Below are positions 2,975 to 6,279 of a DNA stretch of 6,794 nt, one piece after another. The notes beneath the pieces were generated by a model that saw nothing but the letters and a program-made list of their open reading frames with translations, had not been told where the DNA came from and did no database searches. The position numbers and the translations under genes were made by a program. Each line of letters opens with the position of its first letter. Position 1 is the first letter of the stretch. Source of the stretch: a virus (taxonomy: Duplodnaviria > Heunggongvirae > Uroviricota > Caudoviricetes); the IMG/VR virus record IMGVR_UViG_2657245124_000002, positions 1-6,794 of that record; one strand, given 5' to 3'.

Positions 2975-3406
2975 ATGCGTAAAGTTTGTGCAGCCATTTT
3001 GTCCGCAGTCATCTGTCAGTCCGTATCCGGTGCGCCTGCATGGGCGTCTGAATATCAGTCCACACTGAGCGCGGGGTATCTTCATGCCCGTACGAACGCT
3101 CCCGGCAGCGATAATCTGAACGGGATTAACGTGAAATACCGTTATGAGTTTACGGACGCGCTGGGGCTGATTACGTCCTTCAGTTATGCCAATGCTGAGG
3201 ATGAGCAAAAAACGCACTACAGCGATACCCGCTGGCATGAAGATTCCGTGCGTAACCGCTGGTTCAGCGTGATGGCGGGGCCGTCTGTACGCGTGAATGA
3301 ATGGTTCAGCGCGTATGCGATGGTGGGTGTGGCTTACAGCCGTGTGTCGACTTTCTCCGGGGATTATCTCCGCGTAACTATACAGCAAATAAACCAACAG
3401 GCCTGA
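2975..3406 (+). CDS. lom: Lom-family outer membrane beta-barrel protein (Ail/OmpX/PagC family), C-terminally truncated; probable pseudogene
   Basis: GAGAGG Shine-Dalgarno 6-11 nt upstream of the ATG at 2975. N-terminal signal peptide MRKVCAAILSAVICQSVSGAPAWA. Lom-like sequence runs to about ...[11 protein letters not shown] (near nt 3379), then 8 unrelated codons and a stop. The product is 143 aa against roughly 206 aa for lambda Lom (from memory). Confidence 0.8.
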   Translation: MRKVCAAILSAVICQSVSGAPAWASEYQSTLSAGYLHARTNAPGSDNLNGINVKYRYEFTDALGLITSFSYANAEDEQKTHYSDTRWHEDSVRNRWFSVMAGPSVRVNEWFSAYAMVGVAYSRVSTFSGDYLRVTIQQINQQA

Positions 3407-3927
3407 CAGATGGAACTGTATATGTAATTTACAGTTCGCACATTAAACCGACTGCTGCTGATGTTGGGGCGTTGTCATTATCTGGAGGTCAACTGAATGG
3501 TGCACTGGGTATCGGAACATCCAGTGCTCTTGGCGGTAATTCGATTGTATTGGGTGATAATGACACGGGCTTTAAACAAAATGGCGATGGTAATCTGGAT
3601 GTTTATGCTAATAACGTCCATGTTATGCGCTTTGTTTCCGGCGGCATTCAAAGTAATAAAACCATAAATATTACAGGGCGTGTTAACCCCTCGGATTACG
3701 GTAACTTTGATTCCCGTTATGTGAAAGATGTTCGACTTGGTTCACAGCAATATTATGGAGTGAACAACTGGCAAACATGGAATTTCCAGTGCCCTTCAGG
3801 TCATGTATTATCTGGTATTAATGTTCAGGATACAGGGTCTAACTCTGCCGATAATATAGCGGGCGTTTATTACAGACCCGTTCAAAAGTATATAAATGGC
3901 ACCTGGTATAATGTAGCGAGCGTTTAA
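3301..3927 (+). CDS. Side tail fibre C-terminal (receptor-binding) segment, copy 1; 5'-truncated fragment with fibre homology only from about nt 3380
   Basis: The translation from about 3380 ([63 protein letters not shown]...[11 protein letters not shown]) is paralogous to the minus-strand fibre segment at 5021-5950. The first 25 codons of the track ORF are lom DNA read out of frame, there is no Shine-Dalgarno at the ATG at 3301, and the TAA stop (3925-3927) sits 1 nt before the tfa ATG. Confidence 0.7.
3478..3740 (+). repeat. Left arm of a 263-bp inverted repeat inside the two tail-fibre variable segments
   Basis: Compared by eye with the reverse complement of 5187-5449: about 10 mismatches in 263 bp (about 96%), with a perfect run of roughly 110 bp at 3478-3586. 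Confidence 0.85.
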
Positions 3928-3928
3928 T

Positions 3929-4456
3929 ATGATGCACTTAAAGAACATAAAAGCGGGTAATGCTAAAACACTGGAACAGTATGAGTTAACAAAGAAACAC
4001 GGAGTTATCTGGCTTTACTCTGAGGACGGAAAAAACTGGTATGAGGAAGTGAAAAACTTTCAGCCAGACACCATAAAGATTGTTTACGATGAAAATAATA
4101 TTATTGTCGCCATCACCAGAGATGCCTCCACGCTTAATCCCGAAGGTTTTAGCGTCGTCGAGGTTCCCGATATAACGGCCAATCGTCGGACCGATGATTC
4201 CGGTAAGTGGATGTTTAAGGACGGAGCTGTGGTTAAACGGATTTATACGGCTGACGAACAGCAACAACAGGCCGAATCACAAAAGGCCGCATTGCTTTCC
4301 GAAGCTGAATCAGTCATCCAGCCGCTGGAACGCGCTGTCAGGCTGAATATGGCAACAGACGAGGAACGCACACGACTGGAAGCATGGGAACGCTACAGTG
4401 TTCTGGTCAGCCGTGTGGATACGGCAAATCCTGAATGGCCACAAAAGCCTGAATAA
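3929..4456 (+). CDS. tfa: Tail fibre assembly protein (Tfa / Mu U-like chaperone), cognate to fibre copy 1
   Basis: 175-aa ORF starting 1 nt after the fibre stop. The N-terminus [40 protein letters not shown] is typical of Tfa chaperones, and the protein is a paralogue of the 4485-5018 product. Confidence 0.85.
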
Positions 4457-4461
4457 AAATT

Positions 4462-4481
4462 AAGGCCCGATAGCGGGCCTT
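4462..4481. terminator. Hairpin between the convergent tfa genes; candidate bidirectional terminator
   Basis: Perfect 8-bp stem AAGGCCCG (4462-4469) / CGGGCCTT (4474-4481) with loop ATAG. An A-rich tract to its left gives a U-tract for minus-strand transcripts; the plus-strand T tract is weak. Confidence 0.5.
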
Positions 4482-4484
4482 CTC

Positions 4485-5018
4485 TCATTCTGGTTGTTCT
4501 GGAAACGTTACTGGCAGGCTGGAGGTGTCTGTGGATTCAACCTTCTGCGCATAGAGCATCCACTCGGTTAATTTTTGTTTATTCTCATCGGAAATGATGC
4601 CCAGCCGTAGCTGAGAGTCCCACAGCTGGGTTTTATCCCTGACGAGCTGCAGCAGGCTCTGCTTTTCATTTTCCGCTTGTTGCCTTTGCTCTTCCTCGGT
4701 ATAAGTTCGCTTTATCACCGCACCATCTTTGAACATCCAGTTGCCCGAAATATCAGCCCGGCGATTTGCTGTAATATCAGGCAACTCAACGACACTTAAA
4801 CCTTCTGGATTAATTGCTGATACATCCTTGTCTATAGCAATAATTATTCCCTCAACTGTGTAAGCCAGTTTTATTGTATCCTCCTGAAAGTTTTTTAATT
4901 CCTCATACCAATTTTTTCCATCTTCGGACCATAACCAGATAACATCAAAATTCTTTGTTAGCTGGTATTGTTCAACGGTTTTTGGATTACCTGCGACAAT
5001 GTTTTTTAAATGCTGCAT
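4485..5018 (-). CDS. tfa: Tail fibre assembly protein (Tfa / Mu U'-like chaperone), cognate to fibre copy 2
   Basis: 177-aa ORF with ATG at 5018-5016, 2 nt after the stop of the minus-strand fibre segment and preceded by an AGGT Shine-Dalgarno. N-terminus [40 protein letters not shown]. Confidence 0.85.
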
Positions 5019-5020
5019 GA

Positions 5021-5950
5021 TTATACCTGCGATACGTTATACCATGTTCCGTTAATTAACTTTTGTATTGGTCTGAATACTGCCGGATCATCACCATCGA
5101 CTTCACCGATAATACCAAGCCCCGTGATTACATGGCCTGATTTTTCATACATCACGCCTTTCTTCATGGTCTGAACAACTCGTGTGCCAAGTCTGACATC
5201 TCTCACATAGCGGGAATCAAAGTTACCGTAATCCGAGGGATTAACACGTCCCGTAATATTTATGGTTTTATTACTTTGAATGCTTCCGGAGACAAAGCGC
5301 ATAACATGGACGTTATTAGCATAAACATCCAGATTACCATCGCCATTTTGTTTAAAGCCCGTGTCATTATCACCCAATACAATCGAATTACCGCCAAGAG
5401 CACTGGATGTTCCGATACCCAGTGCACCATTCAGTTGACCTCCAGATAACGGCAGTGCACCAACATCTCCTGCTGAAGGTTTTCTGGTGGTGGTGTAAAA
5501 TTCGGACCAGTCGGCTTCAAAACCATAACCATCACGGGCTGAACGATAAAAAATACCGCCATTTTTATAATTAATCCGAAACTGAGCTGCAGGACAACTT
5601 CCTTCTCCCATATAAAAATGAATAATTAACGTTGATGCACCACTAATAGTTGCGTTATAGGCTCCGCTACTCCAGTTCCATCCAACTGCTTTATCATTCT
5701 CAACGGTGCTTCCTGTTTTCCCTAAGGCAAACGCACCAACATGACTTGCTTTTAATGTGATATCGGAGGAACCATCAAAAGCCACATTGCTTATTTTCCT
5801 GGCAGTTTTTAATTTTGCAGCTGTAGAAGCATTGCCGGATAGTTCACCAGAAAGGCCACCGCTGAATGTTTGTCGATTAGTCCAGGTATTCGCTGTACTG
5901 AGTAACGGTATTTTCTCCCCGCTTGTGCCGAGTTCTCGTAAACCGAGGTT
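5021..5950 (-). CDS. Side tail fibre variable C-terminal segment, copy 2 (silent-orientation copy with no start codon of its own; the track calls 5021-5785 from an internal GTG)
   Basis: The minus-strand frame is open from 5950 to the TAA at 5023-5021 (translated by hand: [66 protein letters not shown]...). An in-frame TAA lies immediately outside the crossover site (5953-5951), as expected for a segment that is expressed only after inversion fuses it to a constant fibre N-terminus. Confidence 0.8.
5187..5449 (-). repeat. Right arm of the 263-bp inverted repeat (partner of 3478-3740)
   Basis: The reverse complement of 5187-5449 aligns base for base with 3478-3740. Both arms encode [81 protein letters not shown]. 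Confidence 0.85.
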
Positions 5951-5958
5951 TTAGATAA
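5933..5958. other. Site-specific inversion crossover site (hix/gix/pix-like, 26 bp)
   Basis: TTCTCGTAAACC-GA-GGTTTTAGATAA: two imperfect inverted 12-bp half-sites around a 2-bp core. The right half reads TTATCTAAAACC on the other strand, close to the recalled TTATCAAAAACC half-site consensus. It sits 55 bp upstream of the invertase start and inside the fibre copy 2 reading frame. Confidence 0.65.
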
Positions 5959-6012
5959 TGGCGGTTTCTGGCCTGCATGGAATGATTTGTGCTTTTGGAC
6001 GGGAGATTCAGC

Positions 6013-6279
6013 GTGCTGATTGGCTATGTAAGGGTATCAACAAATGACCAGAATACAGATCTGCAACGAAACGCTCTTGTTTGTGCAGGATATGAACAAA
6101 TATTTGAAGATAAATTAAGCGGAACAAGGACAGGCCGACCTGGATTAAAATGTGCTTTAAAGCGCCTTCAAAAAGGTGACGCACTGGTTGTCTGAAAACT
6201 GGACTGACTGGGTCACTGTATGCGGCATCTTGTCGTGCTGGTGGTGGAAGCCTAGAAAAAGTATCGGGTGTTGCTGAAC
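6013..6279 (+). pseudogene. pin: Serine DNA invertase of the Pin/Gin/Cin/Hin family, inactivated by in-frame stops and truncated by an IS insertion
   Basis: GGGAGA Shine-Dalgarno, then GTG at 6013. The product VLIGYVRVSTNDQNTDLQRNALVCAGYEQIFEDKLSGTRTGRPGLKCALKRLQKGDALVV carries the resolvase-type catalytic N-terminus. The frame hits TGA at 6193-6195, TGA at 6205-6207 and TAG at 6253-6255, while homology continues between them ([18 protein letters not shown]). Homology ends at the IS boundary at 6280. Confidence 0.85.

Follow-up and report, generated by a model that had tools for sequence, protein, structure and literature searches.

Invertible tail-fibre segments of the Gin/Pin type (Din family) are known from the G segment of phage Mu, the P region of the e14 prophage of Escherichia coli K-12, the C segment of phage P1 and the H segments of P2-like prophages. 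In the intact form, a constant 5' exon of the fibre gene stf reads over a 26-base-pair (bp) crossover site into one of two variable tip exons, each of which is accompanied by a tfa chaperone gene. An adjoining serine invertase flips the segment, aided by an enhancer that lies in the invertase's own 5' coding region, and the Gin, Pin, Cin and Hin invertases can substitute for one another. Din-family inversion requires two inverted 26-bp sites, the enhancer and an active invertase (PMC3798978 and references therein, which for the two inverted sites are Johnson & Simon 1985 and Kahmann et al. 1985). Here we describe a 6794-bp stretch of viral DNA (hereafter the window), which is the whole of draft contig LIVH01000067.1 (assembly GCA_001420045.1) and is on record in 2 samples. 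Most of its right half is very probably the dead remnant of such a segment, in the place that stf occupies (J-lom-stf-tfa) in a lambdoid prophage whose host is E. coli or a close relative.

Gene identities were taken from a Pfam scan and from translations of the open reading frames (ORFs) in the window. Downstream of the tail-tip gene J and a truncated lom, positions 3380-6279 consist of a fibre tip exon and a tfa gene on the plus strand, a second tfa gene and a second fibre tip exon on the minus strand, a crossover site, and an invertase remnant on the plus strand. The original prediction had read a Pin/Gin-type inversion layout with these same coordinates from the letters alone, and the Pfam matches, together with the identities to Mu U, U' and Gin, bear it out. 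The parts of the segment are as follows.

3380..3927, plus strand: variable fibre tip exon of the Sv type, C-terminal 182 codons (Pfam gp37-type fragment at 3382-3924 and a weak gp37_trimer match)
3929..4456, plus strand: tfa, orthologue of Mu U, intact, 175 amino acids (aa) (Pfam Caudo_TAP, 8e-38)
4485..5018, minus strand: tfa, orthologue of Mu U', intact, 177 aa (Pfam Caudo_TAP, 4e-34)
5021..5950, minus strand: silent variable fibre tip exon, complete, 309 open codons (Pfam gp37_C and gp37_trimer, 5024-5947)
3428..3745 and 5182..5499, no strand: inverted repeat of 318 nucleotides (nt), 90% identity, the middle part common to both fibre exons (repeat search)
5933..5958, plus strand: sole crossover site (gixR/pixR equivalent), 26 bp, TTCTCGTAAACCGAGGTTTTAGATAA, centre at 5945/5946
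6013..6249, plus strand: serine invertase remnant of about 79 codons (Pfam Resolvase N-terminal domain, 6013-6192, 4e-14)
6031..6102, no strand: candidate equivalent of the recombinational enhancer (by position, from nt 19-90 of cin, where the P1 record has its enhancer)

The window therefore holds two alternative fibre 3' exons on opposite strands, each with its own tfa, the left exon being truncated. The tfa pair is well preserved: the plus-strand protein is 91% identical to Mu U across 175/175 residues, and the minus-strand protein 86% identical to Mu U' across 177/177 residues. At 99% identity, the silent exon matches the tip that is expressed in isolate 30821_1#280, where the stf has 934 aa, and in strain NCTC86. 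In NCTC86 the exon arms (L001 3506-4281 and 5728-6503) form near-identical inverted repeats of 776 bp that reach the crossover sites. The difference between these and the 318-nt repeat of the window points either to gene conversion that acted on the exon pair in one lineage or to replacement of a cassette in the other.

We looked for the pair of inverted sites that should flank the segment. With up to 3 mismatches allowed, the window has a single copy of TTCTCGTAAACCGAGGTTTTAGATAA, against an expectation of 0 from 200 shuffles. No second crossover site was found in the window, either by a search for the core AAACCNNGGTTT or at up to 8 mismatches on either strand. The same scan returned paired inverted copies in Mu, in NCTC86, 30821_1#280 and B-2207, and in P2-like prophages. 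Only one of the two flanking 26-bp sites is thus present. It has the very sequence of the invertase-side site in NCTC86, 30821_1#280, B-2207, 4/1-1 and AST205, and differs from Mu gixL/gixR at 3 positions. In the relatives the two sites differ from one another at 2 positions of the outer half, TTATCTAAAACC versus TTATCGAATACC, so that the fibre frame reads TAA-AAC across one and GAA-TAC across the other (compare L001 6474-6499). In the window a minus-strand TAA in the outer half-site (5951-5953) closes the silent exon, whereas the stf-side site of the relatives has GAA and the frame stays open. The invertase-side site thus stops the silent exon, and the stf-side site is read through.

The missing site, and the missing 5' part of the fibre gene, are accounted for by the left edge of the region, where two further features meet.

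2975..3406, plus strand: truncated lom (Pfam Ail_Lom, 140/199 profile positions)
3376..3380, no strand: deletion junction, at which lom gives way to inner sequence of the left fibre tip exon (overlap of the alignments to the two parents restricted to 3376-3379)

In relatives lom is 600 nt long; 405 nt (135 codons, up to 3379) are left in the window, after which its frame runs through 8 out-of-frame foreign codons to a stop at 3404-3406. Homology of lom to the relatives ends at 3379, and homology to the fibre exon of full-length P2-like and Mu-like fibre genes begins at 3376, so that microhomology at the joint is at most 4 nt (AACT). From window 3376/3380 on, the left tip exon is 93-97% identical to full-length fibre genes of P2-like prophages. 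No constant fibre 5' exon is present: the truncated lom is followed at once, and in another frame, by inner sequence of the left exon, where relatives have about 1.9 kilobases (kb) of constant stf. The absence of both the constant N-terminal part and the left crossover site had been predicted, and the junction alignments and the 8-mismatch scan (which was also to reveal any second, inverted copy of the site within the window) confirm it.

The size of the loss can be estimated from genomes that keep the missing parts. In the P2-like prophage of HCP5S3_I4, the left crossover site (gix, 4521-4546) lies 462 nt upstream of the point aligned with window 3376 (L009 4996), and in isolate 30821_1#280 the lom breakpoint lies about 2.2 kb from the crossover centre. 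From these distances, we estimate that about 2.7 kb is missing: the 3' end of lom, all of the constant part of stf, the left crossover site and, beyond it, ~460 nt at the start of the tip exon. We regard the deletion as illegitimate. Two other origins of the junction were considered and rejected: an invertase-mediated deletion at a pseudo-site, since neither the site scan nor inspection of the sequence revealed a gix-like sequence at 3376-3380, and a deletion mediated by an insertion sequence (IS), since no IS end lies at the junction.

The frame of the left fibre fragment stays open upstream into lom, in a frame other than that of lom, as far as an ATG at 3301, giving a mechanical ORF of 208 aa (3301-3927). 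Gene callers instead picked 3472-3927 (151 aa). Neither the ORF starting at 3301 nor that starting at 3472 has an evident start context, and neither is able to form a fibre.

Could the joint at 3379/3380 be an artefact of short-read assembly, so that the real genome has an intact lom, a constant stf exon and a left site, and a segment that can be flipped in trans? The contig starts inside J and stops inside an IS; both ends lie in repeated sequence and are probably repeat-induced breaks. The region itself contains the 318-nt inverted repeat, and no complete E. coli genome was found with the same lom/fibre junction. These points speak for an artefact. But the joined sequences share at most 4 nt, far below the overlaps that assemblers use, and the identical contig is on record for 2 samples. 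The module of the relatives, moreover, often decays independently by other routes: in strain 4/1-1 (L011 35-2647) ISEc12 removes the 5' part of lom, and in strain AST205 (L012 2834-4301) a deletion joins the small terminase gene to mid-stf. A misassembly at this junction is the main uncertainty of the analysis; we consider it very unlikely.

We take the junction, then, as a genuine deletion. With one crossover site left and the constant exon gone, the segment should be able neither to invert nor to give rise to a tail fibre. The proposal that the module is locked and its fibre not expressed is thus supported, as far as can be judged from the sequence, by the single site, the missing constant exon and the dead invertase. 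It is the loss of the left site that locks the segment, not the loss of the invertase, because intact invertases of the family in co-resident prophages could in principle act in trans. The prediction went too far in holding every element needed for switching to be damaged. The right site does not differ from that of relatives in which both sites survive, the enhancer stretch is 97% identical to Mu gin, and neither the tfa pair nor the silent exon is damaged. The two genes and this exon would nevertheless be functionless in their present context, and the survival of the intact parts (two tfa genes, tip exon, site and enhancer stretch) reflects recent or neutral decay rather than function.

We next consider the right side of the region, where the invertase remnant is followed by two more features.

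6235..6279, plus strand: 3' fragment of a tfa gene fused in frame to the invertase remnant (in relatives, PGAP/RefSeq annotate a partial tail fiber assembly protein)
6280..6794, minus strand: one end of an IS3-family insertion sequence, orfB transposase (Pfam rve, rve_3 and rve_2, 6325-6792)

Read from the GTG at 6013, the invertase frame gives VLIGYVRVSTNDQ. It retains the catalytic Ser9 motif YVRVSTNDQ, and its residues 1-79 are 85% identical to Gin and 75% to PinE. The segment is therefore adjoined by a Gin/Pin-homologous serine invertase with its catalytic serine. Homology to invertases ends near nt 237 (about codon 79), however, and the C-terminal two thirds, including the DNA-binding domain, are gone; a full-length open invertase of about 185-200 aa with a C-terminal DNA-binding domain is not present. 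The remnant is a mosaic: its nt 1-180 are 96% identical to Mu gin, whereas nt 181-237 resemble pinE (81%) more than gin (60%) and include the pinE-identical stretch TGCGGCATCTTGTCGTGCTGGTGG. The candidate enhancer equivalent at 6031-6102 is 97% identical to Mu gin, and likewise to the intact invertase genes of P2-like prophages.

Three in-frame stops follow the GTG at 6013: TGA at 6193-6195 (codon 61), TGA at 6205-6207 (codon 65) and TAG at 6253-6255. The prediction had assigned all three to the invertase. All are indeed in frame, but only those at codons 61 and 65 lie in invertase sequence, where comparison with intact invertase genes gives TGG>TGA and CGN>TGA, respectively. The third stands in the place of a tryptophan codon of the tfa scrap: it is TGG (Trp) in 30821_1#280, inside the tfa fragment. 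The join between invertase and tfa lies at about 6235-6249. In NCTC86, where the IS is lacking, both invertase stops (codons 61 and 65) recur, as do the TAG and the invertase::tfa fusion. Since IS-free genomes share the fusion, and NCTC86 the stops as well, the invertase was dead and truncated long before the IS arrived. The IS had been thought to cut the 3' end of the invertase; it does not. Invertase sequence had by then given way, near codon 79, to a tfa fusion common to IS-free genomes, and what the IS cuts is the tfa scrap, 30-45 nt past the invertase remnant.

The lesions are widespread. The block from arm through site to remnant (5187-6279) is 98.5-98.8% identical in 14/14 listed genomes that have this block as their best place, and in the search with it 123 records have their best place at 99% or above. 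The invertase::tfa fusion, from codon ~79 to the last ~30 tfa codons, is conserved in lambdoid prophages of E. coli, located at ompW in 4 strains and beside potB in a fifth (for example L001 3129-3212, L007 4129-4233 and L011 8070-8153). On its 3' side the relatives have a small hypothetical gene, a class I S-adenosylmethionine (SAM)-dependent methyltransferase gene and more tfa/DUF4376 fragments.

As for the IS, homology to IS-free relatives ends at 6279 and the terminal inverted repeat starts TGAACCGCCCC at 6280. The rve-type orfB and a terminal inverted repeat at the boundary, both read from the single end that the window contains, place it in the IS3 family; we presume it to be IS629-like. 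Transposase loci of the IS3 family match it at 99% identity in 3500 E. coli genomes, and these matches begin at window 6273-6277. The IS is absent from NCTC86 at this position, and no complete E. coli genome was found with the same IS junction.

Comparison with the closest relatives presented a further question, that of orientation. Window 3460-5962 is collinear with NCTC86 L001 4001-6503 at 99.2% identity, yet J-lom and the invertase lie on opposite sides of the segment in the two. In NCTC86, B-2207 and 30821_1#280, the constant stf exon is joined to the exon that is silent in the window (5021-5950), and the exon type found on the left in the window stands beside the invertase remnant. The segment of the window is thus flipped relative to all three. 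Informative single-nucleotide polymorphisms (SNPs) between the 776-bp arms of NCTC86 put the exchange at window 5861-5949, which includes the crossover centre at 5945/5946. This interval appears to fit a site-specific inversion better than a randomly placed homologous crossover.

The orientation might instead have changed by RecA-dependent recombination between the exon arms, or by replacement of the cassette from a co-resident P2-like or Mu-like prophage. The NCTC86 arms are near-identical over their 776 bp, which would suit the former, and near-identical cassettes are present in P2-like prophages of the same strains, which would suit the latter. But the SNP interval covers just 89 bp of a 776-bp arm around the crossover centre, an outcome with a chance of about 11% if crossovers were uniform, and the site that resulted is made up exactly of the inner half plus the outer half from the invertase side. 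We find an origin of this kind doubtful.

If the segment was inverted at its sites, which enzyme did it? Both lineages carry the same invertase lesions, so the flip was either catalysed in trans or is older than the lesions. Strain 4/1-1 contains a lambdoid module with a dead invertase as well as a P2-like prophage with an intact invertase gene of 199 aa, which makes an invertase supplied in trans plausible. We tentatively raise the possibility that the segment flipped after its own invertase had died, through the enzyme of a co-resident P2-like, Mu-like or e14-type prophage. If so, the widespread dead gin/pin::tfa lambdoid module would be an 'orphan' host-range switch reliant on the invertases of other prophages, and the contig would record a trans-driven flip that was later frozen by deletion.

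Several points limit our account of the remnant and of its flip. One SNP alone (5860) narrows the exchange interval toward the crossover site. Window 3380-3460 is P2/Mu-like in type and not NCTC86-like, which also favours replacement of the cassette; the left exon upstream of 3460 thus indicates that the ancestor was a mosaic and not simply NCTC86-like. The flipped state could partly have come from homologous exchange with another prophage, and cassette exchange among prophages appears to have shaped the locus as well. The order of events is one that we infer, and the evidence is confined to one 6.8-kb draft contig. In separate searches, no complete genome was found with the orientation of the window beside a dead invertase. 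A synthetic 'flipped NCTC86' query gave full-length matches in 205 genomes; the one region inspected (4/1-1) was a P2-like prophage sharing the end of the constant exon, so the query did not discriminate.

We also wondered whether the single site and the enhancer of the remnant might still recombine with a distant chromosomal site through the invertase of another prophage, causing large inversions or deletions. The site is perfect, the enhancer-equivalent stretch is nearly that of Mu gin, and intact invertase genes accompany the module in other strains. But nothing in the contig data shows such events, and in this family the two sites and the enhancer have to lie within a single supercoiled domain, with a strong preference for inverted sites close to one another. 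This is the least probable of the alternatives, and we give it hardly any credence.

Taken as a dead remnant, the region can be explained by four steps. First, the invertase would have gained its stops and lost its 3' two thirds through fusion to a tfa fragment, an old event common to many E. coli strains. Second, the segment would have ended up the other way round from its closest relatives, most likely either through crossover-site inversion catalysed in trans or through an inversion older than the invertase damage. Third, an illegitimate deletion of about 2.7 kb would have fused lom, at its middle, to mid-sequence of the tip exon expressed at that time. Fourth, an IS3-family element inserted 30-45 nt downstream of the invertase remnant; the third and fourth steps are not ordered relative to each other.

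For annotation, this means that the locus should be described as a set of pseudogenes and remnants (lom', stf' fragments, a pin/gin remnant and a tfa scrap) interrupted by an IS, and not as a working phase-variable switch. Likewise, pipelines for inverton detection should not be expected to find flipping here. The region offers a tidy case of stepwise prophage decay, in which freezing came from loss of a crossover site and not of the invertase in cis. Its intact tfa genes and silent tip exon can still be drawn on when P2-, Mu- or lambda-like phages enter and recombine with it. Beyond annotation its importance is small.

The remaining features of the window lie upstream of the segment or between its genes.

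49..2907, plus strand: J, lambdoid tail-tip protein (Pfam Phage-tail_3, Ig_J, Phage_Tail_Tip and Ig_GpJ_C)
4462..4481, no strand: G+C-rich hairpin between the convergent tfa genes (terminator-like call on the minus strand only, where it has a T-rich tail)

The reading frame of J is open as far as the start of the contig, and its product is 97% identical to gpJ of the NCTC86 prophage; it is J that identifies the setting of the module as the J-lom-stf position in a lambdoid prophage. Directly 3' of J, at 2926-2945, is a strong terminator-like hairpin with a T-run. An Rfam scan of the window gave no match reaching the gathering threshold.

How does the region compare with the known systems? Alignment with the e14, Mu and P1 regions, which the original prediction had proposed as a check, revealed homology to all three, weakest with e14. 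The G segment of Mu (Sc, gixL, Sv-U / U'-Sv', gixR, gin) has the same order and strands as all surviving parts of the window, with DNA identity of 81-85% over 3695-5074 and 5933-6249. Unlike Mu, the host element of the window is lambdoid, with J-lom upstream; Sc, gixL and about 460 nt of Sv are deleted, and what is left of the truncated invertase is a gin/pin mosaic broken by stops. Similarity of the fibre tip exons to Mu S is confined to their last 80 residues, at about 50% identity. The C segment of P1 (cin, cixL/cixR) has a homologous tfa pair, with 90% DNA identity over 4019-4973, and an invertase 5' region that is 68% identical, but P1 has far longer fibre exons and an intact system. The e14 P region (stfP-tfaP / tfaE-stfE / pinE) shares the gene order and the setting in a decayed lambdoid prophage, and its silent exon is pseudogenised. 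Alignment is confined to the site and invertase region (71% DNA identity), and between the tfa proteins there is essentially no relationship; e14 has both crossover sites and an intact pinE, and the window has neither.

The H segments of P2-like prophages (DFK.1, HCP5S3_I4, VCSW5 and 4/1-1) have the same five-gene layout and are 90-97% identical in DNA to the left exon and the tfa genes, and the 5' 180 nt of their invertase genes are 94% identical to the remnant. They differ from the window in their myovirus baseplate context, in having both sites and in an intact invertase gene (195-199 aa), and are presumably functional. The closest relatives are the lambdoid modules of NCTC86 and B-2207 (at ompW) and of 30821_1#280 (beside potB), which have the order J, lom, stf, tfa, tfa', stf', invertase remnant and are identical to the window at 99.2% over 3460-5962 and 98.6-98.8% over 5187-6279. 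Unlike the window, they keep lom, a full stf and both sites; their segment has the opposite orientation, their arms are homogenised over 776 bp, and no IS interrupts the tfa scrap. Set beside Mu G, e14 P, P1 C and the P2-like prophages, the element is of an already known kind, in a known state of decay.

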